A DNA stretch of 64,000 nucleotides from the NCBI RefSeq assembly GCF_965214355.1, contig NZ_CBDCBI010000001.1:9587-73586 (forward strand). The letters run 5' to 3'. The stretch's first letter is position 1, and every line of letters begins with the position of its first letter. Shown here piece after piece: positions 1-62,961 of the stretch. The DNA comes from Novosphingobium sp. GTDB taxonomy: Bacteria > Pseudomonadota > Alphaproteobacteria > Sphingomonadales > Sphingomonadaceae. The notes under the pieces are model-generated. The model saw nothing but the letters and a program-made list of their open reading frames with translations, had not been told where the DNA came from and ran no database searches. The position numbers and the translations under genes are program-made.

Positions 1-97
1 CGATCCGGTCGTTGGGATCGAGCGCGACTTGCACGCTGCCATCCCCGTCAAGACCGATCCTGTCGCGCGTGCGGGCGGGAAGTTCGAGCAAAGCCAT
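1..97 (-). CDS. bchL: Light-independent protochlorophyllide reductase iron protein BchL, 5' end only (runs off the left edge)
   Basis: The minus strand from ATG at 97 reads MALLELPARTRDRIGLDGDGSVQVALDPNDRI, matching the BchL N-terminal 'DG(E/D)GSVQV' leader. An AAGGAA RBS overlaps the bchH stop, and the position fits bchFNBHL order. Confidence 0.8.
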   Translation of the reverse strand, partial: MALLELPARTRDRIGLDGDGSVQVALDPNDRI

Positions 98-106
98 ATC
101 AGTTCC

Positions 107-3100
107 TTACGCTGCCACCGCAACGACACCCTCGAGACGATCCTCGAGTTCATCGCTTGCAGCATGGAGTGCGGCCAGAGTTGCCGCATCGGGTTGCCAG
201 TAATTGCGTTCGCTCGCCTCGATCAGCCGGTGCGCGACACGCGCCGCCGCCCGCGGATTGAGCGCCGCGATCCGTTCGCGCATGGCCGCATCGAGCACGT
301 AGGTTTCGCCGATCCGCTGATAGACCCAGGGATCGACTTCGCCGGTGGTCGCAGACCAGCCCATCGTCGTGGTGACACTGCCCTCGATCTGGCGGACGCC
401 TTCGTATCCGTGGCGCAGCAAACCTTCGGTCCAGACCGGATTGAGAATGCGTGTACGGGTTTCCAGGGCGACCTGTTCCTGCAACGAGCGCACTTTGCCC
501 GATCCTTGCGTCTGGTCGCCGATATAGACGGGCGCCGCGGTGCCTTTGGCGCGCGTGACGGCGCGGCTTATCCCGCCCAGGGCATCGACATACTGGTCGA
601 TCGTGGTGATGCCGAGTTCGACGCTTTCGAGATTCTGGTACGCGCAATCGACCGTCCTGAGCGCAGAGCTCAAAATCGCCGCCTGGCGGACAGGAACCCC
701 TTTGGTCCCGTAAGCATAGCCCTTTTGCCGTTCGAAACTGTCGGCCAGTTCGTCGGGATCGGTCCAGCCGCCGTTATCGATCATCAGATTGACATTGGCG
801 CCGTAGGATCCTTCGGCGTTTGAAAACACGCGCAAAGCCGCCGTTTCGATGTCGCAACCATGCTCGGCCTGATGCGCCAGGCTATGACGCCGGATGAAAT
901 TCAATGCAGACGGCTCGTCGGCCTGCGTGGCCAGCAATGCCGCTTCGGCCAGCATCCGCGTCTGCAGCGGCAGCAGATCGCGAAACACGCCGGACAGCGT
1001 GACGATGACGTCGATGCGCGGGCGGCCCAGTTCTTCAAGGCCGATCAGCTCTGCCCCGGCGAGCCGGTTATAGCTGTCGAACCGTGGCCGCGCGCCCATC
1101 AGCGCCAAAGCCTGGGCGATCTGCGCGCCTTCGCTTTTCAGATTGTCGGTGCCCCACAGCACCATCGCGACCGTTTCGGGAATATGGCCGGCATCGGCAA
1201 GGCTGCGTTCGACCAGGCGCTGCGCCTGCGCCGCACCATCGCGAACCGCATAAGCCGAAGGCAGGCGGAACGGATCAAACCCGTGGATGTTGCGACCGGT
1301 CGGCAGGATCTCCGGTGAGCGCAGCAGATCGCCGCCGGTGACCGGACGGATATAGCGCGCATTCAGGGCATGAACGATGCCGTCGATTTCGCCATTCGAG
1401 GACAGCGCGGTGTTGAGCGCGTCCATGTCCCGCAGCAACGGCGTATCGAGCCGAAGCGTGCCTGCAACCAGGCCCTCGATCGTGTCGAGCGACAGCAATT
1501 CACCGCGCGCGCTGGCAGACGCGGCGATCATGTCGATGCGTTCTTCGCGAGTCGCTGCGGCGCCTGCGACGTGCAGCCCCTGCGGGATGAGTTCGCGTTC
1601 GATTTCGTACAATTTGGCGGCAAGAGCGGCAATGTCGCTGCCGTCGAGATCGATCGCGGTGGCCTGATCGCCGATCAATTCGCCAAGATCGGTCCATTCG
1701 TCGCTGCCGGGTTCAGCATGGCGCCAGCGTTCGACCGACGATTTGAGATCGGCCAGACCCTTGTAGACGCCCGCATTGGTCAAAGCCGGCGTCAGATAGC
1801 TGATCAGCGTGGCGCCCGAGCGGCGTTTGGCGAGCACGCCTTCCGACGGATTGTTTGCCGCATACAGATAGATATTGGGCAGATCGCCGATCAACCGGTC
1901 GGGCCAGCATTTGGCGCTAAGTCCGGCCTGTTTGCCCGGCATGAATTCCAGGCTGCCATGCGTGCCGAAATGCAGCACGGCATGGGCGCAGAAATCCTCT
2001 TTCAGCCAGCGGTAGAACGCGGCGAACGCGTGCGTCGGCGTGTAGCGGCCGGCAAACAGCAGCCGCATCGGATCGCCTTCGTAGCCAAGCGCAGGCTGAA
2101 TCCCGACAAAGACATTGCCGAATTGCGCGCCCAGAATCTGCACCGCGTTGCCGTCGGATTGCAGTTTTCCCGGTGCCGGCCCCCAGGCGTCCTCGATTTC
2201 GGAAAGCCAGGTCTCGCGCTGCACGATCGTATCGGCGCTGACCCGGGCGTGGACATTGGCCTCGGTGCCGTGGCGAGCGGCGTTCCCGCCCAGGACGCGG
2301 TCACGCAAGGCATCGATCGATGCCGGCACATCGACCGTATACCCTTCGCGATCAAGCCGCAGCAGCGTTGCGTGCAGCGAGGCGAAAACACTGAGAAACT
2401 GGGCCGTACCGGCCGCGCCGGCATTGGGCGGAAAATTGAACAGCACCACGGCGATGCGTTTTTCGGCATTTGCGGCCTGGCGCAGTTCGATGATCCGCAG
2501 CACCCGGGCGCTCAACATCTCGGCGCGTTCGCTGCACGCCTGCATGGCGCGGACCTGGCTCGACGCGGGGAAGGTACAGCCGCGCTGGCAGCCGGTGCAT
2601 GGCGTGTCAGACCCGTCCGAACGCCCGCCGAACACCATCGGCACGGTGCCACCGTCGAGTTCGGGAATGGCGACCATCATCGTCGATTCCAGCGGCAGCA
2701 AGCCCTGGCGATTTGTCCCCCAGGCCTGCAAAGTCTGGAATTCCACCGGATGCGCGGCGATATAGGGCCGATCGAGCGTTGCCAGCATCGCCTCGGCCGC
2801 AGCAGTATCGTTGTACGCTGGGCCACCGACCAGGCTGAAACCGGTCAGATTGACAACCGCATCGACGATGGCGACCCCGCCCTTCATGAACAGCGCCTCG
2901 ATCGCCGGCCGCCCGTCGAGCCCGCCGGCAAACGCCGGAATCACGTTCAGCCCGCGCGCTTCCAGGGCGGCAATCACGCCGTCATAATGGCCGGTGTCCT
3001 TTGCCAACACATACGAGCGCAGCATCAACAGGCCGACTGTGCCCTTGGCGCCGCGACGGCGCGGCAATTCGGTCGCGGTGGCGGCCATGCGCTGCGCCAG

Positions 3101-3784
3101 CGCCGGATGATAGACCCCGACTTCGGGATAATCGCGCGGTGGCACCGCTTTCATCGTGCCGCGCAGGGCGCGGCGTTCGCCGTCGGCATAGCGATCAACC
3201 AGCGAGCGGATCATGTCGACGACATTGTCATCCGACGCCGCCAGCCAGTATTGCATCGTCAGGAAATAGGTGCGCACATCCTGCGCCGTGCCGGGAAAGA
3301 ATTTCAGCAGCTTTGGCAGGCGGCGCAACATGGCCATCTGCCGTGCGCCCGAACTCGCGCCCGACTTGGTGGTGCCGCGCATTTTCTTGATCATCGACAA
3401 CAGCCCGGTGGCGGGCTTGTCCATGCGATAATCGCCCATCCGGGTCAGTTTGACGACATCGCCCGCCGACATCAGCCCGATCATCGCATCGCAATCGTTC
3501 TGGCGCGCCACCAGTTGCGGCAGCACGGCGCGGATGTGATCTTCAAGGAACAGCATCGTCATCAAGATGATGTCGCCGCGCGCAATGTCGGCGCGCGCAA
3601 GATCAAGCGATCCCGGCTCTTCGTCCCAATCGGCCGCGGCATGAAACCCGATCGTCACGCCCGAATTCCGGGCCGCGAACTGTTCCTGCGCGCGCAGGAC
3701 CGCGCCCGAAAGATGATTGTCGAGCGTGATGATCACGACACGGACCGGAACCGACATGGCGGTGATGGCTGAACTAGCGGGCAT
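107..3784 (-). CDS. bchH: Magnesium chelatase subunit H
   Basis: Long ORF with CobN/BchH motifs ([36 protein letters not shown]). Start placed at ATG 3784, overlapping the bchB stop; the track start at 3877 lies inside bchB. Confidence 0.95.
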
Positions 3785-5342
3785 AATGCGCCTTCGCATC
3801 GTAGAGCGTTTCGAGCGTAATGGCGGCGATGCCCTGCTCGGTGGCATAGCGCTCGGTGTTCCGCCGTGCTTTCCCACGCACGAAGAACGGGATTTTCAGA
3901 AGTTCTTTTTCAGCGTCGCTGGACCAGCCGGACACAGCCGCAAAGATGTTCTCGGTCACAGGTTCGGCGGGCGAGTCTGCAGGGGCCGAAGGGGCCGCAG
4001 GCGCCGCGCCATGACCAAGATGCGAAGCGCCTGCGCCATCGCTGAATTCGAAATCATCGCGGAACATCGTCAGCAGATGCTCCTCCAGCCCCATCACGAG
4101 CGGATGGACCCACGTGTCGAACAGCACATTGGCGCCCTCGAAACCCATCTGCGGGCTGTAGCGCGCGGGAAAATCCTGCACATGGACCGGGGCGGAAATC
4201 ACGGCGCAAGGGATACGCAGGCGCTTGGCGATGTGCCGTTCCATCTGCGTGCCCAACACCAGCTCGGGCTGCGCCTCCTGGATCGCCGCTTCGACGTCGA
4301 GATAATCGTCGGTGATCAGCGGCTCGACGCCGTACAGCGCGGCCGCCTCACGAACATCGCGGGCAAATTCACGATTGTAGCAGCCCAGGCCCACCACTTC
4401 GAAACCGAGCTCATCACGGGCCACCCGCGCCGCTGCGACCGCGTGCGTCGCATCGCCGAAAATGAACACCCGCTTGCCGGTCAGATACGTCGAATCGACC
4501 GAGCGGCTCCACCAGGGCAGATTGCCCAGGCTTTCGAAGCGGCCGAGTGCGGCAGATGGGTCCAGCCCGCCCAGCATCGACACTTCGGTGATGAAGGCGC
4601 GCGTCGCGGCATGGCCGATCGGGACAGTCCGCACGGTTTTCTGGCCAAATGTCTTGTCCAGCCAGCGGCACGCCGTGTCGGCGATTTCAGGATACAGGCA
4701 GATATTGAAATCGGCCTGGCCCAGCCGCGCCAGGTCGGCCGGTGTCGCACCCAGCGGCGCGGTGACATTCACGTCGACACCGATTGTCGCCAGCATCCGG
4801 GTGACTTCGATAAGATCGTCGCGATGGCGAAAGCCCAGCGCCGTTGGCCCAAGCAGATTGGCCGTGGGCCGGCGCGTTTCGCGCGGAGCGCGCGTCACGT
4901 CTTTATCGGCGAGCTGGCGCACCAGTTGGTAAAACGTTTCTGCCGCGCCCCAGTTTTCCTTGCGCTGATAGCTTGGCAGCTCGAGCGCGATGACCGGGCA
5001 AGGCAACCGCATCGCTTCGGCCAGGCCCGCCGGGTCGTCCTGGATCAATTCGGCCGTGCACGATGCGCCGACCAGCATGGCCTGTGGTTTGAACCGCGCG
5101 TAAGCATCCCGCGCCGCCCGCTGAAACAGGTCGGCGGTATCCTTGCCCAGATCACGCGCCTGAAATGTCGTGTATGTGACCGGCGGGCGCTTTGCGCGAC
5201 GCTCGATCATCGTGAATAGCAGGTCGGCATAAGTATCGCCCTGGGGCGCGTGAAGGACGTAGTGCACGCCTTCCATCGCGGTTGCGATCCGCATTGCGCC
5301 GACATGCGGTGGTCCTTCGTAAGTCCAGACGGTCAGCTGCAT
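3774..5342 (-). CDS. bchB: DPOR subunit B
   Basis: 522 aa with [34 protein letters not shown] and C-terminal [15 protein letters not shown]. Confidence 0.96.
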
Positions 5343-5346
5343 CGCC

Positions 5347-7244
<1,898 letters not shown>

Positions 7245-7382
7245 CTTTGGGCCACACAGGCCGCTAATCCGGTTGCCAGCCACTTATAAATGAGTCTAGG
7301 TTCGAGGGGTATTCGAGTCGCACGCTGCAAAGGCGGCAGGCCCGGGCATGTGGTTGTGGTGTTTGCCAGGCGGGAGCTGGTT

Positions 7383-8327
7383 ATGGCGACGATTGCTTTT
7401 TCCGACGCAAATGCAGCTTGGCCCGGCGATGCCGGACATGCGTCGCAACACGGCGCGTCGGAGTTCAGCGCGCGCGTGTCTCCGTCATTTGATGCCGACA
7501 CGAAAAATCTGGCCGCGTTTCGCGTGATTGCCACGACCGATTTCAAGAACTCGCTATCCCGGCTGATCGAAAACGAGGTTATTCCGCGCCTGATGCTTGC
7601 GCATGCTTTGGAAACGTTCGACACGATCCCCGCTGCGGTCGTCGCCAGCATCGTTGTCGGTGAAGCAGAGGCGCTCGCGGTGCTGGTGCTGCAAGTCGAC
7701 GCCGGCGTCCTGCTCGCCCATGTAGAGGCGATTTTGGCGCGCGGCGTGACAGTCGATACGGTCATGGTCGACCTGTTGGCGCCCACTGCACGACTGCTTG
7801 GCGAATACTGGGAAAGCGACCGCTGCGACTTCGTCGATGTGACCATGGGGCTGTGGCGCTTGCAAGAAGTCGTGCATGTTATTGCTGCACGTGCACCGTC
7901 GGAAAGATTGCTTGCTGCCGGCGGCCACCGCGCCCTTTTTGCATCGATGCCAGGCGACCAGCATAACTTCGGCACAGTCGTGATCGACGAAATGTTCCGC
8001 CGGGATGGCTGGATTACCGATCGGTTGAGTGGTGCCGAGACGTCAGAGCTGCTCAGACGCGTCGGCGAAGAGTGGTTCGACATGATCGGGTTGACGGTCA
8101 GCTGCGAGTGTCATATCGCGACCCTGCCCTCGGTAATTGTTGCACTGCGGAATGTGTCCAAAAATTCGCAAGTCAGCATTATGGTCGGTGGGCCAGTGTT
8201 CAGCAAAGATCCCGGGCAAGCAGAGAAAGTGGGCGCGGATGGTACCGCACCTGATGCACAAGTGGCCTTGAAAGTGGCAGCTGGCCTTGTTCGTACACGG
8301 CAGAGACAGGCTTTAGCGGGCAATTAA
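7383..8327 (+). CDS. ppaA: Cobalamin-binding photoregulator PpaA/AerR
   Basis: B12-binding-type motif ALFASMPGDQHNFG, LGEYWESD and IMVGG; immediately upstream of ppsR. Start at ATG 7383 after GGGAG. Confidence 0.88.
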   Translation: MATIAFSDANAAWPGDAGHASQHGASEFSARVSPSFDADTKNLAAFRVIATTDFKNSLSRLIENEVIPRLMLAHALETFDTIPAAVVASIVVGEAEALAVLVLQVDAGVLLAHVEAILARGVTVDTVMVDLLAPTARLLGEYWESDRCDFVDVTMGLWRLQEVVHVIAARAPSERLLAAGGHRALFASMPGDQHNFGTVVIDEMFRRDGWITDRLSGAETSELLRRVGEEWFDMIGLTVSCECHIATLPSVIVALRNVSKNSQVSIMVGGPVFSKDPGQAEKVGADGTAPDAQVALKVAAGLVRTRQRQALAGN

Positions 8328-8375
8328 ACGAGAGCTGGTCATCACGCTGGTTCGCAGGAGTGCTAAAACCCGGCC

Positions 8376-9815
8376 ATGGATATGCATAGCGCCAATTCGG
8401 CAATCGCCCCCTTCCCCATGGCCGACTTGGTCAAGGGATCACTGCCAGCGGGTGTCGTTTCGGCATTTCTGGCGGCGGTTGGCGATATTGCGCTGATCCT
8501 TTCCGGCGACGGCATGATCGTCGATATCACAGTGGGGCATGGCGAACTCGCCAGCCAGGAATTCGCCGATTGGGTCGGAACCGCCTGGATAGATACGGTC
8601 ACAATCGAAAGCCGGCCCAAAGTTGCCGAAATGTTGGCCGATGCAGCAAAACCCGGCGCCCAGAAAGCCTTGCGGTGGCGGCAGGTCAATCATGTCACGC
8701 CGGGCGGCGACGTTCCGATACGGTATCTGATGCTGGCGCTGGGCGACGACGATCATCTGATCGCGATCGGCCGGGACTTGCGCGGTGCAGCCGTGATGCA
8801 GCAACGCCTGTTGCAGGCGCAGCAGGCGATCGAGCGTGACTACATCCGCCAGCGCCAGTCAGAGATCCGCTATCACATGCTGTTCGACAGCGTGTCGGAA
8901 CCGGTGCTGATTGTCGATGCCGAAGACCGCCGTATCCGCGAAGCCAATCCGGCCGCATACCGCCTGCTCGACGCCAGCCCTGGTGATCTTGCCGGTCGCG
9001 CCCTCACCGAGATCGTCGCACCTGAACACCGTGATGATCTGATTGCTTATCTGGGCGCGGCCGAAGTGACCGACGATCGCGCGCCGCTCGGATTGCGCAT
9101 GGTCAATGGTCGCGGCGACGCCAGTTTGGCTGCGCGGCTGTTCCGCCAGGCAAGCAAGCCGTTGTTTATCGTGCGCATCGAAACGATCCCTGAATCAAAC
9201 GCAGTGCCACAGTTCGACGCGCTGCTGGGCAGTGTCATCGAGCGGATGCCCGATTCGTTTGTCCTGGTCGATCGCGAATTGAATGTCCTGACGGCCAATT
9301 CCGCATTCCTCGAAATGACCGAGGTATCGTCGATCGATCGGGTCGTTGGCCTGCAACTGGGCAAATGGCTGGGTCGCCCCGGGATCGACCTGGAACTGAT
9401 CGTAGGACAGTTGCGCGAACATGGTGCGGTTCGCAATGTCGCCACGATCATGCGCGGCGCGGCGGGTTCGAAAGAAGAGATCGAGGTTTCAGCGGTGTGC
9501 GCCCCGATGGGCGACAGCGAATGTTTTGGCTTCACGATCCGCGATGTTGCCCGGCGGGAGCGCGGTGTTCCCGTAAGCCCCGGCGACGTGCCGCGCTCGG
9601 TCGGGCAATTGACCGAATTGGTCGGCCGGATGTCGCTCAAGGATATCGTGCGCGAAAGTACCGATCTGATCGAGCGGCTGTGCATCGAGGCAGCACTCGT
9701 ATACACCTCTGACAACCGCGCCTCCGCCGCCGAAATCCTGGGTGTCAGCCGGCAAAGCCTCTATTCGAAGCTGCACCGGCACGGGCTTGGCAATCTGGTC
9801 CCCGCGGAGATCTAG
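8376..9815 (+). CDS. ppsR: Photosynthesis gene repressor PpsR (PAS domains plus Fis-type HTH)
   Basis: 479 aa with PAS repeats and C-terminal LIERLCIEAAL...NRASAAEILGVSRQSLYSKL. Confidence 0.95.
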   Translation: MDMHSANSAIAPFPMADLVKGSLPAGVVSAFLAAVGDIALILSGDGMIVDITVGHGELASQEFADWVGTAWIDTVTIESRPKVAEMLADAAKPGAQKALRWRQVNHVTPGGDVPIRYLMLALGDDDHLIAIGRDLRGAAVMQQRLLQAQQAIERDYIRQRQSEIRYHMLFDSVSEPVLIVDAEDRRIREANPAAYRLLDASPGDLAGRALTEIVAPEHRDDLIAYLGAAEVTDDRAPLGLRMVNGRGDASLAARLFRQASKPLFIVRIETIPESNAVPQFDALLGSVIERMPDSFVLVDRELNVLTANSAFLEMTEVSSIDRVVGLQLGKWLGRPGIDLELIVGQLREHGAVRNVATIMRGAAGSKEEIEVSAVCAPMGDSECFGFTIRDVARRERGVPVSPGDVPRSVGQLTELVGRMSLKDIVRESTDLIERLCIEAALVYTSDNRASAAEILGVSRQSLYSKLHRHGLGNLVPAEI

Positions 9816-9885
9816 CGCTTCGCGCAAGCGCTTGTAATATCGAGAGAATGGCAACTTCGCCACAGTGCGAGCACGACGTTGGCGC

Positions 9886-9903
9886 TGTCTATTCGGTTTG
9901 ACA
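9886..9903. promoter_or_regulatory. PpsR box upstream of bchG
   Basis: Exact TGT-CTATTCGGTTTG-ACA, 30 bp before the bchG ATG at 9934. Confidence 0.8.
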
Positions 9904-9933
9904 CTATTTCCTGTCAAGTATAGCATTTCGGCG

Positions 9934-10842
9934 ATGGAACGATTAAGCGCCCCGGGATTCGAAACGCCCTTTCCTGCCCCCAAAGACATTCTCGAACTGC
10001 TCAAGCCGATCACATGGTTTCCGCCCATCTGGGCGTTCATGTGCGGGGTGGTTTCATCGGGGGTTCCCATAGCGAGCCGCTGGCCTTTCGTCATCGCCGG
10101 CATAGCGCTGGTCGGGCCGCTGGTATGCGGGACAAGCCAGGCCGTAAACGACTGGTTCGATCGTCATGTCGACGCCATAAACGAACCGGACCGGCCGATC
10201 CCATCGGGCCGTATCGCCGGATCCTGGGGCCTGGGAATTGCCGTCATCGGCACTGTGATCGGCTTGATGGCGGCGGCGGCAATGGGGCCCTGGGTCCTGA
10301 TCGCGACGATTTTTGCGCTGATATGCGCGTGGTCATACAGCGCGCCGCCGTTCCGGTTGAAAAGGAGCGGCATATGGGGCCCTGTAGCGGTGGCGCTGAC
10401 TTATGAAGGCCTGACCTGGTTCACCGGCGCCAGCGTCATGGCAGGCACCCTGCCCCCGCCCCATGTGCTCGCCATTCTGGCGCTCTATGCCGGCGGCGCG
10501 TTCGGGATCATGACGCTCAACGATTTCAAAGCCATCGAGGGCGATCAGGCCATGGGTATCCGTTCCCTGCCCGCAACGCTCGGCGTCGGCCCGGCGGCGC
10601 GCATTGCCTGCCTGGTCATGGCGGTGGCCCAGATCGCGGTTGTCGCCTTGTTGGTTCACTGGCGTCATCTGGCAGTGGCGGGTATCGTTGCCGCGCTCGT
10701 TGCGGGCCAGATCGGGCTGATGCCCCGGCTCTTGCGCGATCCGCGCGCAAACACGCCGTGGTACAACGCGACCGGCACCACGCTTTATGTGCTGGGCATG
10801 CTCGCGTCGGCGCTTGCGCTTGGCGGGGTGGCTGGCCTGTGA
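9934..10842 (+). CDS. bchG: Bacteriochlorophyll synthase
   Basis: ELLKPITWFPPIWAF, NDWFDRHVDAINEPDRPIPSGR and NDFKAIEGD (UbiA family). Confidence 0.95.
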   Translation: MERLSAPGFETPFPAPKDILELLKPITWFPPIWAFMCGVVSSGVPIASRWPFVIAGIALVGPLVCGTSQAVNDWFDRHVDAINEPDRPIPSGRIAGSWGLGIAVIGTVIGLMAAAAMGPWVLIATIFALICAWSYSAPPFRLKRSGIWGPVAVALTYEGLTWFTGASVMAGTLPPPHVLAILALYAGGAFGIMTLNDFKAIEGDQAMGIRSLPATLGVGPAARIACLVMAVAQIAVVALLVHWRHLAVAGIVAALVAGQIGLMPRLLRDPRANTPWYNATGTTLYVLGMLASALALGGVAGL

Positions 10843-12206
10843 GCGCCTCAAATGCGAGCGCTCAGACTGTAACCGGCCGAACTGCGCTCGGCTGGCTTGG
10901 CATCGTCCGGCTCGGCCTCGTGCAAAGTGCCATCGGCGCTATCGTGATGTTGGCCACATCGCTGCTGAACCGGGTCATGGTGGTGGAATACGCGCTGCCG
11001 GCGGCTTTGCCTGCCGGGCTGGTTGCCTGGCATTACGCAGTGCAGCTTTCGCGCCCGGCCTGGGGCCATGGGTCGGACGGGGGTCGCCGGCGTACGCCGT
11101 TGATCGTGCTTGGCATGGCAACGCTGGCGTCCGGCACGATGCTGGCGGTTGGCGCGCTCAATCTGCTTGCGGTCCGGGCGCCCTGGGGTGTTCCTGCGGC
11201 CGTCGTCGCCTTTACGATGATCGGTGCCGGTGTGGGCGCGGCGGGCACATCGTTGCTGGCGTTGCTTGCCACCCGCGTCACACCGGACCGGCGCGCGGCC
11301 GCGGCATCGATCACCTGGATCATGATGGTGGCCGGTATCGTCGTCACCGCCGGCGTCGCAGGGGCGTGGATCGATCCCTTTTCACTGCCCCGTCTGGCCA
11401 TGGTCGCCGGCAGCGTCGCCGGCGCGGCGTTCCTGACCGCGATGCTGGCGGTTTGGGGAATCGAAGGAGCACCCGCTGCGGTCGCCGCACAGGCCCTGAC
11501 ACGTACGACAGACGGGCAATCGGCACCACACCAGCCATTTGGCATCGCGTTGCGCGCCATGTGGGCCGATGACGAAGTGCGCCGGTTCACGCTGTTCGTG
11601 TTCCTGTCGATGCTCGCCTACTCGATGCAGGAGCTGATCCTTGAACCTTTTGCCGGTTTGTTGTTCGGCTTTACCCCGGGGCAATCGACCCAGCTGTCCG
11701 GGGTGCAACATGGCGGCGTGCTGGCAGGCATGATCGTCGTGGGGCTTGGCGGCGGTGCATTTGCGGGGCGCGGCGCCACGGGCTTGCGCCGGTGGGTCGT
11801 GGGCGGCTGCATCGGCTCTGCGCTGGCGCTTGTCGGGCTGGCCTTTGCGGCACGTATCGGCTTGGGCTGGCCGCTCGCGCTCAACGTGGCACTGCTGGGC
11901 TTTGCCAACGGGGTGTTTGCTGTCGCCACGATCGGCGAGATGATGGCGCTGGCCAGCGTCGATGGCGGGCGTGTCGGCATGCGCATGGGCGTATGGGGCG
12001 CGGGCCAGGCGATCGCCTTTGCGCTTGGCGGCCTGACCGGCGCGGTCGGCATCGACGCGGGCCGTGCGCTGATCGGGTCGACGCCTGAAACGTTCATGAT
12101 CGTGTTTGGCGCAGAAGCATTGCTTTTTCTGGTGGCGGCGTCGCTCGCGTTGCGCGGTGCGGCACAGACCGTCAGGACGTTGACACTTGCCGGTGCGCAA
12201 CAATGA
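10839..12206 (+). CDS. pucC: PucC-family (BCD) MFS protein
   Basis: RLGLVQSAIGAIV...LNRVMVVE and QELILEPFAG; multiple hydrophobic segments; GTGA overlap with bchG. Confidence 0.9.
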   Translation: MSASNASAQTVTGRTALGWLGIVRLGLVQSAIGAIVMLATSLLNRVMVVEYALPAALPAGLVAWHYAVQLSRPAWGHGSDGGRRRTPLIVLGMATLASGTMLAVGALNLLAVRAPWGVPAAVVAFTMIGAGVGAAGTSLLALLATRVTPDRRAAAASITWIMMVAGIVVTAGVAGAWIDPFSLPRLAMVAGSVAGAAFLTAMLAVWGIEGAPAAVAAQALTRTTDGQSAPHQPFGIALRAMWADDEVRRFTLFVFLSMLAYSMQELILEPFAGLLFGFTPGQSTQLSGVQHGGVLAGMIVVGLGGGAFAGRGATGLRRWVVGGCIGSALALVGLAFAARIGLGWPLALNVALLGFANGVFAVATIGEMMALASVDGGRVGMRMGVWGAGQAIAFALGGLTGAVGIDAGRALIGSTPETFMIVFGAEALLFLVAASLALRGAAQTVRTLTLAGAQQ

Positions 12207-13405
12207 TAGAATATGATTGTGTCGTCGTGGGCGGAGGCCCTGCCGGAGCGACTGCAGCCACCGATCTTGCTGCATCCGGGCACAGCGTGTTGCTGCTGGA
12301 TCGCGCGGGACGGATAAAGCCATGCGGCGGAGCCATTCCGCCCCGGCTGATTCGCGACTTTGCCATTCCCGATCACCTGATCGTCGGCCGCGCGCGTTCG
12401 GCCCGGATGATCGCGCCGTCGGACAGCACTGTCGACATGGCAGTCGATCAAACGGAGACCGGTGCCTTTGTCGGCATGGTCGACCGCGAAACCTTTGACG
12501 AATGGCTGCGCGCACGTGCCGCGGATCATGGCGCAACGCGTGCCACCGGAACCTTTGACCAGATCGAGCGGGATGCGCAGCCCGGCGCCATCGTGGTGTT
12601 TTCCGAAGCGCGCGCGGGCGTGCAGCACCGTGTGCGCGCCCGGTGTGTGATCGGCGCCGACGGCGCCCGGTCGCGCGTGGCGCGTGGTGCGCTTGCCGGC
12701 GCCGAACGCATGCCTTGCGTGTTCGCCTATCATGAAGTGATCCGCTCGCCCGCACCACATGCCACAGGGTTTGATCGCGAGCGTTGCGATGTGTTTTATC
12801 AGGGCAGTGTATCGCCCGATTTTTATGGTTGGGTGTTTCCACATGGCGATACCACGAGCGTCGGGGTCGGCAGCGCCAACAAGGGCTTTTCGTTGCGCGA
12901 TGCGGTGACCCGGCTGCGCGCGCGCGAGCATCTGGACAGCTGCGAAACGATCCGGCGCGAAGGCGCGCCTATTCCGCTGCGGCCGCTGCGCAAATGGGAC
13001 AATGGACGTGACGTGCTGGTTACCGGTGATGCCGCCGGCGTGGTCGCTCCTGCGTCTGGCGAGGGGATTTATTATGCCATGGTCGCGGGGCGCTGGTCGG
13101 CAAGCGCGGTAAACGCCTTTCTCGTTTCAGGCGATCCGCGCGCGCTCAAACAGGCGCGCCGCGCTTTCATGCGATCGCATGGCCAGGTTTTCCGAATTCT
13201 TGGAATGATGCAGTATTTCTGGTATCGCAACGACCGGCGACGGGAACGGTTTGTGATGATGTGCAAGGACCGCGACGTGCAGAACCTGATTTGGCCTGCG
13301 TACATGAACAAACGTCTGACATATGCCCGGCCGCTCGCCTATGTGCGGATATTCCTCAAGGATATGCGGCATTTGTTGGCTACCATGACGGCGCCCGCAC
13401 GATGA
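12203..13405 (+). CDS. bchP: Geranylgeranyl reductase
   Basis: VVVGGGPAG, KPCGGAIP, FYGWVFPHG and GDAAGVVAPASGEGIYYA. Confidence 0.95.
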   Translation: MIEYDCVVVGGGPAGATAATDLAASGHSVLLLDRAGRIKPCGGAIPPRLIRDFAIPDHLIVGRARSARMIAPSDSTVDMAVDQTETGAFVGMVDRETFDEWLRARAADHGATRATGTFDQIERDAQPGAIVVFSEARAGVQHRVRARCVIGADGARSRVARGALAGAERMPCVFAYHEVIRSPAPHATGFDRERCDVFYQGSVSPDFYGWVFPHGDTTSVGVGSANKGFSLRDAVTRLRAREHLDSCETIRREGAPIPLRPLRKWDNGRDVLVTGDAAGVVAPASGEGIYYAMVAGRWSASAVNAFLVSGDPRALKQARRAFMRSHGQVFRILGMMQYFWYRNDRRRERFVMMCKDRDVQNLIWPAYMNKRLTYARPLAYVRIFLKDMRHLLATMTAPAR

Positions 13406-13884
13406 GCCGTGCGTGGATCTTTCCCATCCTGATCGCGGGCATCATCGCCATTGGCGTGGCGGTGATGGGCGCGACGATCACCGATATCGGTCCGTGGTAT
13501 CATGGCCTTGCGCAACCGCGGTGGGCACCGGCAGATGCCGTCTATGGCCTGGCGTGGACAGCGGTTTATGGCTTCGCGGCATTGGCGGGCGTTACCGCCT
13601 GGCTTGCCATGCCGCGGTCAAAGGACCGCGAATGGCTGTTGGGCCTGTTTGCGTTGAACGGTTTTCTGAATATCTTGTGGAGCCTGTTGTTCTTTCGATT
13701 TCACCGGCCGGATTGGGCTGAGATCGAAGTCATGGGGCTGTGGTTGTCGGTGGCAGCGCTGGTCATCACCATCTGGCGCCGTTCAATGACAGGCGCACTC
13801 TTGCTGCTGCCCTATTTGCTGTGGGTCATGTATACCGGATACTTCAACATGATCATCGTCCGGCTGAACGGGCCGTTCTCCTGA
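13402..13884 (+). CDS. tspO: Tryptophan-rich sensory protein TspO
   Basis: WYHGLAQPRWAP, WTAVY, NILWSLLFF and LLPYLLWV; ATGA overlap with bchP. Confidence 0.92.
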   Translation: MSRAWIFPILIAGIIAIGVAVMGATITDIGPWYHGLAQPRWAPADAVYGLAWTAVYGFAALAGVTAWLAMPRSKDREWLLGLFALNGFLNILWSLLFFRFHRPDWAEIEVMGLWLSVAALVITIWRRSMTGALLLLPYLLWVMYTGYFNMIIVRLNGPFS

Positions 13885-14135
13885 CCACGCTGCACTGGCT
13901 CTATGCCAGCGGCCACGCTGTCGATATCGTGTTGACGATCATCACGATCGAATATGTATGGCTGGTTCGTGTGGGCGGTTGGAAAAACACCGACGCGGTG
14001 CTCCGGCTCTCCCCGGGTATCATGATGCTAGTTGCCTTGCGGGCGGCATTGGCCGGGCAGGAATGGTATTGGATCGCCCTGCCCCTGCTGGTTTCGTTTC
14101 CGCTCCATCTTGCCGACATCGCCCGACACCGATGA
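13881..14135 (+). CDS. Small hydrophobic membrane protein of unknown function at the PGC edge
   Basis: About 84 aa, mostly hydrophobic (LHWLYASGHAVDIVL...WYWIALPLLVSFPLHLADI). A CTG start overlaps the tspO TGA by 4 nt; the start is uncertain. Confidence 0.65.
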   Translation: MTTLHWLYASGHAVDIVLTIITIEYVWLVRVGGWKNTDAVLRLSPGIMMLVALRAALAGQEWYWIALPLLVSFPLHLADIARHR

Positions 14136-14173
14136 TCCGTACCCGGCGATCGCAATCGCCGGGTACAAGATGG

Positions 14174-14707
14174 TCAGGAGTTGGTTTTGAGATAGGCGAT
14201 CACGTCGGCGCGTTTTTGCGGATCGGACCAGCCTGGAAAGGTCATTTTCGTACCCGGAACAACGCGCTGCGGATTTTCGAGATACTGGAACAGCTTTGCT
14301 TCGGTCCAGGTTATGCCACTGCCCTTGTTGGCAGCGGAGTACGTGTAGCCATCGATGCTGCCGGCCTTGCGTCCCACGACGCCGTGAAGCGATGGACCGA
14401 TCTTGTTGACCCCCTGCTCGATGGCATGGCACGTCATGCATGTGGTGAAATCGGCTTTGCCGGCCACCGCGTCGCCAGTGTAGCTGGCATATTTGACGCC
14501 GCTGATCGTGTCTGTGTTGTCCGCGGCCGGTGCCGCCGCTGCGGGTGCCGCAGGCGATGCCGCGGCGACGGCGGGATCCGGGGCCGTCGCGGCCGTCGTC
14601 GTGCTTGTGTCGGGCGCTTTCTTTGCGCACGCCGTCAGCGCAAGCACGCTGACCGACACACACACGGCCACATAACCAAGCCGACTTTTCGATACTGAAT
14701 GCATCAT
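14174..14707 (-). CDS. cycA: Cytochrome c2-like class I cytochrome with lipoprotein signal and Ala/Pro/Thr linker
   Basis: Heme motif CMTCH, KIGPSLHGVVGR and PGTKM (axial Met). N-terminal lipobox LTAC; GGAGAGG RBS before ATG 14707. Confidence 0.9.
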   Translation of the reverse strand: MMHSVSKSRLGYVAVCVSVSVLALTACAKKAPDTSTTTAATAPDPAVAAASPAAPAAAAPAADNTDTISGVKYASYTGDAVAGKADFTTCMTCHAIEQGVNKIGPSLHGVVGRKAGSIDGYTYSAANKGSGITWTEAKLFQYLENPQRVVPGTKMTFPGWSDPQKRADVIAYLKTNS

Positions 14708-14766
14708 ATCATCCTCTCCGCTGCATATCTGTCCAGCGCCTGCACTTTCGGCCCCGCACGCCTGAA

Positions 14767-14784
14767 TGTCCAATGGTCTTTACA
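14767..14784. promoter_or_regulatory. PpsR box upstream of cycA
   Basis: Exact TGT-CCAATGGTCTTT-ACA, 60 bp upstream of the cycA start. Confidence 0.8.
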
Positions 14785-14954
14785 CATTCAATGACGAAAA
14801 AATGCACAACTTCTCAGATTGTTTCGGCGACGGGTTTGCGGGTCGCTTTGTTCACGGTTGAGCGGTGTCGACGCTGAATACGATATCGCGTCACTGCTGT
14901 GCTTGTGATTTGGTTGGAAGCGCCTCGAGCGCGTACCCCCCTGCCCCGATACCC

Positions 14955-15235
14955 TATGTCTTTCTTATCAGATTCACTGAAAAGAAGAATCCGGGCTGTT
15001 AGACTGGTTTCTTTAGGGGTTAGATAGTTAAGTCGGCGCGAGTCGGTCGTAACGTCTTGTATTTGGCCGCTATTGCCGGATCGGTCGTTCCCGATGTATC
15101 GAGCCTGTGTTCCTGAAGGATCGAGAATTGTGTTCCCGATGTGTCGACTATCGGTTCCCGGAATACCGTGATTCGTTCCTGATGTGTCGATGGGTCAAGA
15201 AAACAGGCACATTCGGCATAGGGTTTGAATCATTT
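14955..15235. other. Putative plasmid replication origin (oriV)
   Basis: AT-rich stretch (about 14955-15030), five GANTC sites (14971, 14987, 15040, 15170, 15228) and an iteron array, immediately downstream of repA. Confidence 0.75.
15087..15190 (+). repeat. Five 16-bp iterons, consensus GTTCCYGATGTRTCGA
   Basis: GTTCCCGATGTATCGA (15087), GTTCCTGAAGGATCGA (15109), GTTCCCGATGTGTCGA (15132), GTTCCCGGAATACCGT (15154, degenerate) and GTTCCTGATGTGTCGA (15175); period 21-23 bp. Confidence 0.85.
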
Positions 15236-15375
15236 TCGAGGCCAATCGAGGAATAGAGGTTCAAGAATTCGGCTTGGCCGCGCCAGAGGCTGCGCAGGTG
15301 GGTGAATTTCAGCGGTAAGGCAACCAGGGCCCGACACTTCAGGAACGCTTGGGGCCGATTTGCACGGCAAACGGC

Positions 15376-16608
15376 TTAGCCGCGGAGGGTATGGCGGTTG
15401 TCCTTGTCATACCTTCGAACAAACCCGAGGAAGGCATTCTGGTAATTGACAGGCGTGCGCGAGGGGTCGCCGTCAATCCATTCTCTGAAAAGCGCGTGGA
15501 GGTTCTGATAGTCCCAGCCCGGACAATCGCTCCGCAGCGTTTGCATCGTCTGGTCGGTGATGAAACCTTCGGTCGCCCTGGATGACAGGTTTGAAACGGT
15601 ACGGCGCACCAGACTGCGGACATCATAAGTGTTCGTCGAGGCGCTATCTTGCGCTTGGACGGTTGTCGATGATGACCGTTCGTTGGATGCGCCGGCATCG
15701 CCCTTCGGTTTGGTGTCCGGTCGGCGAGCCCCCTGCCCTTTCTGATGGCGTGTCGTGTGCTCGGTGTCGGCCTCGGATCGCCGCCGCATGCGCAAGGCTG
15801 GTTCACGTTTGCCCGGAACTTGCTCGACCGTCACGGCGTATCCTGGCAGCTCGTTGCGTTCGGCTATTTTTGCAATCTCGAACTTGAAGCGCCGATACTG
15901 CCCCTCGGCCCCCGATTTTTCGAACAGCGTCGGTAGCGAAATTGCAAAGCCGGCTTCGCCCGCACCCCCTGCGTGCTTTCGCGCAACCTTGTAGAGCCAG
16001 CGCTCTCTGCCTCCGCTGATATCGAAATACGCGCGATCGATCGAAAGGATGCCGCCCTGCATGAGGACACCTTCATGGAACCAGTTGCTTAGCTCGATCG
16101 TCATGCCGCGCGACCGTTCGGTCTTTTCATCGACAAGTTGGGTCCAGCCATCGAGCCAGCTGAAGGTTGCCTCGCGCCGGTTCTCGGCCCGGATGTTGGT
16201 CTTGACCGTGGTGGAGACCAGGCGGTCCAGTGACTGGGCGAGCAGTTCATACGCGCGGCCGGTCGTGGGGCGGCCGATCGCGCGCAACAGATCGTATGGC
16301 ATGAGATGGAGTTTGCGCGGAACGTCATTCGCGCCCCGGCGAGCCATATCGGCAAGTGTCGACGCACAATAGATCAGGATATCCGCATCCCAGATCGTGG
16401 CCATGCCATAACCCGGGTTTGCCGAGACATGGACCCATAACTTGCCGTCAGGGGAATTGTAGTCGATCGGCTTGATCCGTTTTGACTTTGCCAGGCTGAA
16501 GAACGGTCGTTCCATCATCTCGCGTTGATCGCGCAGAGGCAGATCGGCGATATAGGGAAGGAACAGGTCGAACTGGTCGCTGATTTGGGTTTTCTTTGCT
16601 TTTGTCAC
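15376..16608 (-). CDS. repA: Plasmid replication initiator RepA (RPA-type)
   Basis: RDQREMMERPFFSLAK, GMATIWDADILIY, LERWLY-like GRERWLYKVARKHAG; GTG start; adjacent to parAB and iterons. Confidence 0.9.
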   Translation of the reverse strand: MTKAKKTQISDQFDLFLPYIADLPLRDQREMMERPFFSLAKSKRIKPIDYNSPDGKLWVHVSANPGYGMATIWDADILIYCASTLADMARRGANDVPRKLHLMPYDLLRAIGRPTTGRAYELLAQSLDRLVSTTVKTNIRAENRREATFSWLDGWTQLVDEKTERSRGMTIELSNWFHEGVLMQGGILSIDRAYFDISGGRERWLYKVARKHAGGAGEAGFAISLPTLFEKSGAEGQYRRFKFEIAKIAERNELPGYAVTVEQVPGKREPALRMRRRSEADTEHTTRHQKGQGARRPDTKPKGDAGASNERSSSTTVQAQDSASTNTYDVRSLVRRTVSNLSSRATEGFITDQTMQTLRSDCPGWDYQNLHALFREWIDGDPSRTPVNYQNAFLGFVRRYDKDNRHTLRG

Positions 16609-16740
16609 GGATGCTGCCTGGTGAGTGATGTTTGCGTTTCAGGGCGGGGTTTCGGGGCAGGGCGGGGCGGGGGCGTCGCCCGGTGAAGGCATCGATGCCC
16701 AGGTTCCAGGACCGCGCGCTGGCGTTGAGGCGGATAGGCA

Positions 16741-16760
16741 AAGTTTCCCCGGGGAAACTT
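16741..16760. repeat. Perfect 20-bp palindrome, parS-like site 1
   Basis: AAGTTTCCCCGGGGAAACTT between repA and parB. Confidence 0.75.
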
Positions 16761-16891
16761 CGTGGCTCCAACCGGGTGCAGGGCAGGGGCGATGCAGACG
16801 ACAGGGCGGGGCAGGGGAGGGCGTCCGACCTCCGGCCGGCAATGGGCGCGCGCTTGCGGCGTGGTTGGCCTGTCGCGGGTGTTGGCAAGCT

Positions 16892-16919
16892 GCGCATGTT
16901 TCCCCGGGGAAACATGCGC
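16892..16919. repeat. Perfect 28-bp palindrome, parS-like site 2
   Basis: GCGCATGTTTCCCCGGGGAAACATGCGC, directly after the parB stop; shares the core GTTTCCCCGGGGAAAC with site 1. Confidence 0.75.
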
Positions 16920-17981
16920 TCAACGAAGACGATTGCGGCCTGTGTCATCGAGATATGCAAGTGCTTCGCGCAGGCCCCGAAGCAGATCTTCCTCGGTGGC
17001 CCCCGAGCCGGCATGAAGCCTGATGGTCACCCCCTGCCGATTGGATGACACGACACTCAGCGCTGTTCGGCCCAACTTGCTCTGGAAGATAAAGGGTTCG
17101 CTGGCATCTGCCGTATTCTGCGTCGCCAGATGAAGGCGACGGAACACCTCGGGGGCGGCAAGGGCTGGCTCACCACTCGACTTGCGCCCTGCTTGCTGTT
17201 TTGCCAGCACCTTGGCGGCGGCGACGATGGCGGCCGCCCTGGTCTTGTCATCGAGAAGCTGTGCCAGGGCATAAGCCGGTTTCAGGTGGATGTCGGACGG
17301 GGTGGCGAAGGCCGACACGACCATATCAGGCAGCGCTGCGACCTTCAGCATCTTGGAGAGCCAGCCCTTCGACACTTTGAGGCGCTCTGCCATCCGGGTC
17401 ATATGGTTGCCGTAATGTTGTCGCAGGGCGGCAGCGTAATTGCGGGCGCGCTCGAGATCGGAGACGTCTGTACGCGCGCGGTTTTCCAGATCAGCAAGCC
17501 GAAAGGCGGCTTCGTCATCGAGAACCGCCACCTGGGCGACAAACTGCATCTCCGGATAGGAGTTGCGCCTGAGCCACGAGATCGACCAGTGACGACGCGT
17601 GCCGGCGATCACCTCGAAATCGTGCGCCGGGTCGTCAGCGACCCGCCGGACGACGGCAGGCACCTTTTGCCCGCCCTCTGCGAGGATCGAATCGATCAAT
17701 TCGCGGCAGTTGTCTTCGGTCAGATGCTCATAGAGGCGGGCGTTTCCACTCCAGACGCGAACCCGCGCGGGATCCAGGAGCATCTGGGTGACCTGGCGGA
17801 CTTCACCGGTGGCAACGCGTGCCAGCGCGGTCTCGCGACCGAGCAGCGTATTGCCGCGCATGCGATCCGGCCTGGCCGGAGGGGTCGCCCGCGCGCTGGT
17901 CTCGTCGTTCGAAGAGTCGACCCCAGGCGCATCTTCGTCCGCAAGAAGATCGGCGAGATAGCCCTTTTGATTACGCGCCAT
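16920..17981 (-). CDS. parB: Plasmid partition protein ParB
   Basis: GQKVPAVVRR, FEVIAGTRRHWS (GxRR CTP-binding motif) and ENRARTDVSDLERA; start placed at ATG 17981. Confidence 0.92.
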   Translation of the reverse strand: MARNQKGYLADLLADEDAPGVDSSNDETSARATPPARPDRMRGNTLLGRETALARVATGEVRQVTQMLLDPARVRVWSGNARLYEHLTEDNCRELIDSILAEGGQKVPAVVRRVADDPAHDFEVIAGTRRHWSISWLRRNSYPEMQFVAQVAVLDDEAAFRLADLENRARTDVSDLERARNYAAALRQHYGNHMTRMAERLKVSKGWLSKMLKVAALPDMVVSAFATPSDIHLKPAYALAQLLDDKTRAAAIVAAAKVLAKQQAGRKSSGEPALAAPEVFRRLHLATQNTADASEPFIFQSKLGRTALSVVSSNRQGVTIRLHAGSGATEEDLLRGLREALAYLDDTGRNRLR

Positions 17982-18043
17982 CGGATCGCTCCCAATCGGC
18001 CGGCGACGGCACCGGAGTGCGGGCTGCAGCGGGGCGGGGGGCG

Positions 18044-19252
18044 TCAAGCGGCTTCATTGACAAGAGCCTCCTCGCTGACGGGCGATACACGGCCCCAGCC
18101 CCGGCGGACAAGCTGCTCTACCTGGCCAAGTGCCTCGTCGAGATTTGTGCGGCACCGCTTGTGCGTCCGCGTTGTCCCGATTGGCTTGTCGAGTTCATAT
18201 ACGGTCATCATCCGCATTGCCGCATGGCTTATTTCCGCTGACTCCAGTATCGGCACCGGCAAGAGGGCCGGCCCGAAAGTCTGTTCCATGATCTGCTGGA
18301 CCATGGCATGCGCGGGGTCATTCCCGTTGAATTTCGAGCAAATCAGGCGGACGAACGCATAGTCGACATCGATCCCGGCCTGCCCGAGCTGATCGATGAC
18401 CTGCTCCATCATCGACAGGAATTGCACCGTCGAGCAAAAATCCGGGGTTGTTGCCGCCAACGGCACGATCAGCGCATTGGCCGCCTGCATGACGGCAAGA
18501 CTGATCGTGCCCAGTGCAGGTGGCGGGTCGAGCAGCACGACGTCGTACGATCGTGCAAGATCCGTAAGACCAGCTTTCAGTTTTCGGAACCGTGTTGCAA
18601 GAATGCTCCCGCCGTCGGCGCCGGCTGCTGCCATCTCGTATTCCACATCGAACAACTCGAGATTCGAGGGAATCAGATCGACATTGGGCCAGGGCGTCTT
18701 CTTTACCGCATAAAGAAGGTCGGCCTGCGTCGGGTCGATCGAAAGATACGGATAGAGTGTTTCCTCGCGAGTCACGTTGAAATGCGGATTGAGCCCGAAA
18801 AGCGTCGTCGTCGTCGCCTGGCTGTCGCAATCCACCACGAGCACGCGATAGCCCTGTACCGCCAGATAGTGGGCCAGGTGGGTCGTCACGGTCGATTTGC
18901 CAACGCCGCCCTTGAAGTTCTGGACGGCGATTATGGGCGGCTGATCCATCGGCGCGCGGGCAGGGGAGGCGCCCAGCACTTCACGCATATTCAGAAGTTC
19001 TTCAATGGTATAGCCGGATCGGCGGCCGGAATCGGTGGCCGGCGGTTGGGGCAGCCGGCCATCATCTTCGGCCATCCGAATGCGGTTTGTCGAGCACCCG
19101 AGCAGAGTGGCGGCCTCGGCGATGCCGTATCGCACATCCAGACCCTTGCGCGTATCGGGGAGAAAGGCTTTCCGGCGGAGGCGTTCGATCATTCGAACGC
19201 CGGCGTCTGCCAGCTCGGCGATCCGGCTCGCGTCTGAAGTCGTGTCAGCCAT
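18044..19252 (-). CDS. parA: Plasmid partition ATPase ParA with N-terminal HTH
   Basis: Deviant Walker A NFKGGVGKST, VDCDSQA and LDPPPALG; the N-terminal YGIAEAATLLGCS...RIR HTH indicates type Ia. Start uncertain (19252 or 19258). Confidence 0.93.
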   Translation of the reverse strand: MADTTSDASRIAELADAGVRMIERLRRKAFLPDTRKGLDVRYGIAEAATLLGCSTNRIRMAEDDGRLPQPPATDSGRRSGYTIEELLNMREVLGASPARAPMDQPPIIAVQNFKGGVGKSTVTTHLAHYLAVQGYRVLVVDCDSQATTTTLFGLNPHFNVTREETLYPYLSIDPTQADLLYAVKKTPWPNVDLIPSNLELFDVEYEMAAAGADGGSILATRFRKLKAGLTDLARSYDVVLLDPPPALGTISLAVMQAANALIVPLAATTPDFCSTVQFLSMMEQVIDQLGQAGIDVDYAFVRLICSKFNGNDPAHAMVQQIMEQTFGPALLPVPILESAEISHAAMRMMTVYELDKPIGTTRTHKRCRTNLDEALGQVEQLVRRGWGRVSPVSEEALVNEAA

Positions 19253-19389
19253 TAGCATCCAATCTGAATATAATCGAGCGAACATAGGCTCAATTTCATT
19301 CAATCGTCAATCGTATACTCAAAAGTGATCACGTCGGCCGTGCCACTTGTGGGATGTCTTCATCGCGATCTTCGCCCCGGAAACCTGCA

Positions 19390-58770: not shown

Positions 58771-58890
58771 AGACACATCCTTCAGACACTGAAGGATGAC
58801 TATGCCACCACAGACCCGCGAGCGCCCATCAGCATGGGACATTTCTAAAATAGCGGGATGGGACATTTCTATCTGGCGCTTACAATTATC

Positions 58891-58918
58891 TGGTTCGATA
58901 ATATTAATTATGTTAATA
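58891..58918. other. dif-like XerC/XerD recombination site (xrs/pdif)
   Basis: TGGTTCGATAA-TATTAA-TTATGTTAATA has the 11-6-11 layout. The right arm matches E. coli dif TTATGTTAAAT at 9/11, the left arm ends ATAA, and the IS end lies 6 bp outside the left arm. Confidence 0.7.
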
Positions 58919-59005
58919 GCGACACCACGAGTGTCCATGTAATCTGTGTCCAGTGTGATGGGAATCGCTTGCGGTATCCGGTTTCCTTCAACAGTATCTG
59001 CGACC

Positions 59006-62819: not shown

Positions 62820-62961
62820 ACCGTCGCGCATCGATCGAGTTACGCTCAAGGGAGTTTGAAGTGAGCCGCCTGCGGCGTCTTGCACTTCCAACTCCCTTGG
62901 GCGTCCAAATTATGGGCGAAACACAGTTGACACACGTTCTGCTATCAACCGATTGAAATTA

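Follow-up and report, generated by a model that had tools for sequence, protein, structure and literature searches.

The stretch of Novosphingobium sp. DNA analyzed here (64,000 nt, hereafter the window) corresponds to positions 9587-73586 of contig NZ_CBDCBI010000001.1 (C1), the smaller of the two contigs of its assembly. It carries one end of a photosynthesis gene cluster (PGC) and, directly beside this, a RepA-ParAB replication and partition module of the RPA family. Taking all parts of the explanation together, it is quite probable that C1 is a circular 126-kb secondary replicon with the whole PGC, and it appears to be the first plasmid-type photosynthesis replicon found described outside the marine Roseobacter group. 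A further-reaching reading makes C1 the first photosynthesis chromid described outside the Rhodobacterales, locked to its host by the hemC and hemF genes within the PGC, and sees in C1 and a close metagenome relative a PGC caught in transit between plasmid and chromosome; we consider the chances of this reading about evenly balanced.

An intact RPA-type replication and partition module

All elements of the junction between PGC and replicon were recovered, the genes by Pfam searches, at the positions where a sequence-only reading of the window had placed them. From the end of the PGC onward, the module comprises (window positions):

14955-15010, no strand: AT-rich tract, candidate DNA-unwinding element of the vegetative replication origin (oriV); 56 nt with 37.5% GC, a content among the lowest 0.2% for 60-nt windows
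15087-15346, no strand: five putative RepA iterons (four direct, one inverted) with the 16-nt motif GTTCCYGANGNRTCGA
15376-16608, minus strand: repA, RPA-family initiator; full PF10134 domain (1-228 of 228), E 2.9e-63
16743-16758, no strand: palindrome 1, candidate parS or operator; perfect 16-mer GTTTCCCCGGGGAAAC
16892-16919, no strand: palindrome 2, a 28-nt perfect palindrome around the 16-nt core GTTTCCCCGGGGAAAC (core at 16898)
16920-18047, minus strand: parB, SopB-like centromere-binding protein; SopB_HTH, E 1.2e-33
18044-19303, minus strand: parA, Walker ATPase with a long N-terminal extension; AAA_31, CbiA and ParA domains

Measured from the start codon of the cytochrome c gene that closes the PGC (ATG at 14707), the distance is 248 bp to the AT-rich tract and 669 bp to the repA stop (15376), in agreement with earlier estimates of about 250 and 670 bp. 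Copies of the iteron motif start at 15087, 15109, 15132 and 15175, with the inverted one at 15331; only 0.15 would be expected by chance, and none of 100 shuffles reached the five observed. The interval from the cytochrome c start to the repA stop also holds five GANTC sites (0.8 expected). Between repA and parB there are two perfect GTTTCCCCGGGGAAAC palindromes against 0.04 expected, and these, together with both par genes, match the predicted ParB, ParA and pair of parS-like sites. The absence of decay that had been claimed for the replicon also holds: RepA, ParB and ParA align full-length with relatives, RepA over residues 1-409 of 410 (86% identity over 409 aa to a Sphingobium contig).

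Sphingomonads have many relatives of this RepA, and the known cargo of the plasmids concerned is mostly catabolic. A total of 586 stretches were confirmed as coding for such a relative, and the best 80 of these were compared. The top relative among them is a contig of Sphingobium arseniciresistens (RepA 86%, ParB 79% and ParA 96% identity), and the nearest plasmid in PLSDB is a 319-kb plasmid of Sphingomonas panacis (NZ_CP014169; 83.7% nucleotide identity). In 39 of these 80 related replicons, as well as in the congener G346, the same iteron motif occurs a short way downstream of repA, and in 46 of the 80 the exact 16-nt palindrome is found between parB and repA. Plasmids of this RPA type (PF10134), such as that of S. 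panacis and NC_009427 of Novosphingobium aromaticivorans, have the order parA-parB-palindromes-repA-iterons in common with C1, and the iteron motif and the 16-nt palindrome with it; they belong to what we take to be the ‘Mega-RPA’ group of Stolz 2014. Because motif and palindrome keep the same places in relatives, the window module is, judged by its sequence, a typical and complete member of a conserved sphingomonad replicon family. None of the best 80 RepA relatives has a PGC gene within 10 kb of repA.

How would such a module work? The anatomy and the conservation of the family suggest that RepA would bind the five iterons and open the AT-rich tract. In partition by the SopA/SopB-like pair, ParB would bind the two conserved palindromes and the ParA ATPase would segregate the copies.

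A complete PGC on a probably circular contig

The assembly consists of C1 (126,451 bp, 62.7% GC) and a second contig, C2 (4,144,489 bp, 63.7% GC). Both 16S rRNA genes and the only DnaA gene of the genome are on C2, none of them on C1, and the only RPA replicon of the genome is C1. All 29 PGC and replicon proteins searched with tblastn matched C1 only, and C2 has no photosynthesis gene. The ends of C1 belong together, since one gene, hemE, continues over both of them: it begins at C1:125669 and runs to the final base (URO-D positions 5-267 of 346), and its remaining 75 C-terminal residues are encoded from C1:2. These results agree with the proposal in the sequence-only reading of a circular replicon lacking dnaA and rRNA genes, and with dnaA and 16S on the other contig, C1 is, in this assembly, not a main chromosome carrying an inactive replicon.

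The PGC is complete. With pufC (C1:107411) at one end and the cytochrome c gene (C1:24359) at the other, it passes over the contig ends and, at 43.4 kb, takes up roughly one third of the replicon. It begins with pufC-M-L-A-B, bchZ-Y-X-C and crtF (all on the minus strand), followed by a crtD/I-type desaturase gene and bchO-D-I. The middle part consists of a second tspO, hemC, hemF, hemE, a gene for an NmrA-like reductase, hemA (5-aminolevulinate synthase), puhE, acsF, puhC-B-A and lhaA, and the last part of bchM-L-H-B-N-F, ppaA, ppsR, bchG, a PucC-family gene, bchP, tspO and cytochrome c. The genes expected to the left of the window (puf, puh and crt) are found there, on the rest of C1. The reaction-centre genes pufL, pufM and puhA are present together with pufC (two Photo_RC, one PRCH and one CytoC_RC domain), and two LHC-family open reading frames (ORFs) upstream of pufL are the light-harvesting complex 1 antenna genes pufB and pufA. 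Pfam together with tblastn against relatives shows a full bacteriochlorophyll pathway (bchHDI, bchM, acsF, bchLNB, bchXYZ, bchF, bchC, bchG and bchP). Of carotenoid genes, the cluster has crtF and the crtD/I-type desaturase gene, and an ORF at the crtC position is without a Pfam match. The regulators ppsR and ppaA are both in the cluster. The PGC features within the window are as follows:

1-97, minus strand: 5′ end of bchL, the rest of which is left of the window (C1:8778-9683); Fer4_NifH, E 3.7e-83
107-3877, minus strand: bchH, Mg-chelatase H subunit; CobN-Mg_chel (1053 bits) and DUF3479
3774-5342, minus strand: bchB; Oxidored_nitro and PCP_red
5347-6636, minus strand: bchN; Oxidored_nitro, ATG start checked
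6633-7154, minus strand: bchF; PF07284 BCHF, E 1.4e-58
7290-8327, plus strand: ppaA/aerR-like B12-binding regulator; B12-binding domain, 58-65% identity to the gene in the same place in G037 and G281
8376-9815, plus strand: ppsR, PGC repressor; PAS domains and HTH_8
9934-10842, plus strand: bchG; UbiA
10839-12206, plus strand: PucC-family gene (bch2); PUCC, E 1.4e-84
12203-13405, plus strand: bchP, geranylgeranyl reductase; FAD-binding and GGR domains, 77-80% identity to the PGC bchP of relatives
13402-13884, plus strand: tspO; TspO_MBR, identical protein in the metagenome relative
14174-14707, minus strand: cytochrome c, final PGC gene, ATG at 14707; Cytochrom_C

The cytochrome c gene has the same terminal place after tspO in the relatives G037 and G281 (79-85% identity). 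The PGC is made up of two conserved half-clusters, which are joined otherwise than in the closest relatives, G037, G162 and G281, where the puhE-hemA end is joined to the DUF3422-pufC end; varied joining of PGC half-clusters is familiar among aerobic phototrophs. A former chromosomal “empty site” of the PGC was not definable on C2, where the flanks of the G037 PGC map to scattered places. As a separate observation, the two tspO genes in this one PGC (C1:123289-123804 and window 13402-13884) are paralogues with 46% identity that flank the bch/hem region.

The cumulative GC skew of C1 peaks at about 66-68 kb (window ~56-59 kb), adjoining a dif-like site, and turns a second time near 16 kb, about 8 kb from the iterons. 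The pattern is consistent with replication that starts at the RPA origin and ends at a dif-like terminus, but it is confounded by operon orientation, so much so that cumulative skew was rejected as an origin locator. A turn lying 8 kb from the iterons and not at them is also what might be seen if the RPA module were a relic and C1 were replicated from some other, unrecognized origin. However, Pfam scans of C1 ORFs revealed no other Rep gene, the module is full-length with every conserved element of its family kept, and the skew turns where operons of the PGC change orientation, so that a relic module is scarcely credible.

Haem genes of the PGC and chromid status

hemC is present in a single copy in the genome (C1:123940-124551; six-frame hidden Markov model (HMM) search with PF01379). 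In three congeners lacking a PGC, hemC lies between homologues of C2:997497-998189 and C2:998461-999498. On C2 these two flanking genes are only 271 bp apart, and HMM and tblastn searches at E values up to 10 revealed neither a remnant in the slot nor a hemC anywhere on C2. The gene for the oxygen-dependent coproporphyrinogen oxidase, hemF (PF01218), is found on C1 only and its conserved chromosomal slot has shrunk to 95 bp, while no true hemN was found in the genome, the top score being 95 bits against a cut-off of 325 bits. hemE and hemA have chromosomal paralogues on C2. In pairwise identities, from which the relations of HemC and PufM are read throughout, C1 HemC shares 81.5% with its PGC-linked counterpart in G037, a phototroph from a different genus, and only 57-62% with the housekeeping HemC copies of congeners, which are 68-75% identical among themselves. 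The hemC and hemF genes of the PGC thus appear to have displaced the native chromosomal copies. G037 likewise has only PGC-linked hemC and hemF, and the displacement of housekeeping haem genes by PGC copies therefore occurred at least twice; G162 retains both copies.

The chromid concept is reportedly that of Harrison and colleagues in 2010. A definition of the term is quoted in a study of Roseobacter-group replicons (PMC6739100). C1 has in common with chromids its plasmid-type replication (RepA/ParAB), its near-chromosomal composition and its core genes that are chromosomal in relatives. Its tetranucleotide usage gives a TETRA r of 0.92, compared with a 5th percentile of 0.915 for chromosome chunks of the same size, and its GC content is also in range. 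Unlike other chromids, C1 is very small (126 kb) and its core genes are xenologues that came with the cargo. With hemC and hemF confined to C1 and no copy left in the chromosomal slots of either, C1 answers to the usual description of a chromid and is probably indispensable, the lethality of its loss being deduced from gene content. Of the sphingomonad plasmid or chromid proposed by the sequence-only reading, the sphingomonad affinity is supported by the plasmids related to the replicon, and the second term fits better.

An ordinary, dispensable plasmid would require unrecognized chromosomal enzymes to cover the hemC and hemF steps. HemW/HemN-like proteins are sometimes annotated as coproporphyrinogen oxidases, and the 95-bit match on C2 is a gene of this kind, encoding a radical S-adenosylmethionine protein; the chromosomal paralogues of hemE and hemA point the same way. 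Against this stand the empty hemC slot on C2 and the presence of at least one hemC in all 16 other sphingomonad genomes checked, and no bypass of porphobilinogen deaminase is known in tetrapyrrole biochemistry. A dispensable plasmid is accordingly improbable, and the chromid remains the better description of C1.

A metagenome relative and the question of integration

A contig from metagenome assembly ERZ26273096, ctg167174 (537,380 bp), matches at least 57 kb of C1 with 98.3-99.2% identity, starting at C1 position 100.7 kb and continuing past the PGC as far as 33.9 kb. The cytochrome c-oriV-repA junction recurs in it (98.3% identity) with all five iterons. As the same junction is present in an independent metagenome assembly, the joining of the PGC to the rep region is not a misassembly, a possibility that the sequence-only reading had raised. 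One segment of the window is deleted in ctg167174:

16360-19432: deleted segment (3,073 bp) with repA codons 1-83, both palindromes, parB and parA; defined by blastn breakpoints and the junction sequence

The deletion junction is simple, with 1 nt of microhomology, and ctg167174 has an extra ~540 bp, including a RidA-like gene, that is absent from the window near 21.1 kb. To judge from what is left of it, the RepA remnant must be unable to work and, as the contig is four times as long as C1, another, larger replicon must carry the element there. The intact rep/par state of the window must be the older state at this locus. A candidate explanation of ctg167174 as a tandem-multimer artefact is unlikely; about 4.3 copies would be needed, and the HEPN gene of the same sample is on another contig.

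Several points weigh against C1 being a separate and indispensable circle. A 4,124-bp Tn554-like element is 99.9% identical on C1 (68464-72587; window 58878-63001) and C2 (2181502-2185625), and an IS66 element is also common to both contigs (98% identity). This sharing shows traffic between C1 and C2 and provides substrates for cointegration; the two circles might in principle be the assembler's resolution of a cointegrate. In the closest relative found, the element lies within a 537-kb contig. About 5 nt are missing at the closure point of C1 (C1:126451/1) inside hemE, as deduced from an offset of one base in frame between the two parts of the gene, where both the chromosomal paralogue and the G037 orthologue have two codons. 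This would seem to be a small assembly flaw from closing the circle, a real frameshift in a redundant copy being less likely. Finally, replication and partition functions are deduced from homology and conserved anatomy only, and the essentiality of hemC and hemF from gene content.

The shared elements and the relative would be explained if the element were integrated in the chromosome as a cointegrate via the Tn554-like or IS66 copies, as it seems to be in that relative, with the circle a product of assembly resolution or a minority excised form. We consider this unlikely, though less so than the alternatives of a relic module or a dispensable plasmid. repA, parB, parA, the palindromes and the iterons are intact here, in contrast to the module lost in the larger contig of the relative; this contrast points to selection for the replicon, and hence to its use, in this strain. 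In addition, the genome closes into two contigs with hemE continuing over the ends of C1. A separate circular replicon thus remains the preferred reading of C1.

Relation to known photosynthesis replicons

Of the genomes sampled, 63 of 301 in the family and 33 of 201 in the genus encode PufM. C1 PufM is 87-89% identical to those of a group with members in four congeners and four other genera (G162, G003, G070 and G134) among others, and 75-79% identical to those of most other congeners. Being nearer to copies of other genera than to those of most congeners, it shows that PGC lineages are not bound by genus. Where genomes are complete, the PGC mostly lies on a contig of megabase size, except in the congener G346, whose contigs measure 4.40 Mb, 672 kb and 149 kb. 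Its 672-kb contig has a full PGC of the other lineage (3-37 kb) and, at 108-112 kb, a parA-parB-repA(RPA) module. Eleven plasmids in PLSDB carry PufM; seven of these are from roseobacters, and the others are from Roseinatronobacter, Methylobacterium aquaticum, Candidatus Thiodictyon and Novosphingobium capsulatum (611 kb).

In the literature searched, plasmid PGCs are described only for the Roseobacter group (PMC12654162, PMC6739100, PMC6052148), and no paper was found on extrachromosomal PGCs in Sphingomonas. The Roseobacter photosynthesis plasmids and chromids include those of Roseobacter litoralis (94 kb), Sulfitobacter guttiformis (118 kb), Tateyamaria, Thalassococcus and others (PMC6052148, PMC6739100, PMC12654162). 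Like C1, they have a complete PGC on a low-copy extrachromosomal replicon of ~80-190 kb with ParAB, they are mostly non-mobilizable by typing in PLSDB, matching a C1 in which no transfer genes were found, and some are called chromid-like or have hemC/hemE in the cluster (PMC6739100). Unlike them, C1 belongs to the Sphingomonadales and not the Rhodobacterales, and has an RPA/iteron initiator whose relatives are sphingomonad plasmids. Its PufM is just 60-66% identical to the roseobacter plasmid copies, so the plasmid lineage is not the same. Moreover, the probable indispensability of C1 follows from the loss of chromosomal hemC and hemF, whereas in the Roseobacter case it is argued from codon usage.

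Within the Sphingomonadaceae, the 611-kb plasmid of N. capsulatum HAMBI_0103 (NZ_CP140001.1) and the 672-kb contig of G346 resemble C1 in being extrachromosomal and bearing a PGC, and no discussion of either was found in the literature. Both are five times the size of C1 and have the other PGC lineage (PufM 76-78% identity to that of C1). The G346 module is 66-80% identical to that of C1, but lies ~70 kb from the PGC, and G346 has kept its chromosomal hemF, unlike C1. The annotation of NZ_CP140001.1 shows no replication gene within 50 kb upstream of its PGC.

Mobility and other cargo

The sequence-only reading had also proposed the replicon as a potential vehicle for horizontal transfer of phototrophy. 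This part of the proposal is weakly supported, and self-transfer of C1 is unsupported: Pfam scans of essentially all C1 ORFs longer than ~110 aa revealed no relaxase, coupling protein or type IV secretion gene, small or unfamiliar relaxases and oriT being outside the reach of the scan.

The replicon has further cargo. A hemicellulose (xylan/arabinan) island of ~30 kb shares it with the PGC (window 23746-55209) and encodes glycoside hydrolases (GH) of families GH3 (two), GH9, GH43 and GH51, alpha-galactosidase, esterases, xylose isomerase and xylulokinase, as well as a sugar transporter, a LacI regulator, a TonB receptor and a halogenase-like gene. A cluster for assimilatory nitrate/nitrite reduction (C1:74574-87965) lies beyond the window and is followed by IS66 and ISL3. 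It contains a cobA-type methylase gene, nirB, genes for an NMT1-like binding protein, a major facilitator superfamily transporter and a porin, and a 1374-aa nasA-flavodoxin-reductase fusion. C1 also has a cluster with glycosyltransferase and sucrose-phosphate synthase genes, IS66, ISL3 and IS1202-like elements, and the Tn554-like element. On C2 the copy of the latter adjoins tmk-holB-metG-tatD genes, and its TnpC is found as an identical protein on 19 contigs of many metagenomes. On C1 it lies beside one further pair of genes:

62962-63779, minus strand: MNT-HEPN pair; NTP_transf_2/Polbeta and NTase_sub_bind

The Tn554-like insertion replaces the last MNT codons, giving a protein of 136 aa here, compared with 127 aa in the metagenome relative. 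This pair is probably a toxin-antitoxin module, a possible addiction module that could aid retention of the replicon.

Proposed history and significance

The PGC would have arrived on, or been captured by, an RPA plasmid, as suggested by a replication backbone common to sphingomonad genera and by the near-identical relative that sits in a larger replicon with rep and par deleted. The element bears as cargo the entire 43.4-kb PGC with its own PpsR and PpaA regulators, showed no transfer genes of its own in the scan, and could enter other replicons by recombination. Locking-in would follow as the cluster brings hemC and hemF and the chromosomal copies are deleted, after which the cell could not lose the replicon. 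On this model, curing of C1 should be lethal and not merely abolish bacteriochlorophyll, and should succeed only if the cells receive hemC and hemF, or haemin.

Plasmid spread of phototrophy in the Alphaproteobacteria has so far been argued almost wholly from Roseobacter-group genomes. C1 would represent the same solution in a different order and with a different family of replicons. It may also offer a concrete route to indispensability, in which chromosomal genes become redundant, and are then lost, once the cargo supplies the same pathway genes. Its close relative would represent the next step, namely residence in a larger replicon with the plasmid replication genes decaying. The patchy and phylogeny-incongruent distribution of photosynthesis genes in the genus (33 of 201 species sampled, in two lineages) would thereby become testable with a single strain.

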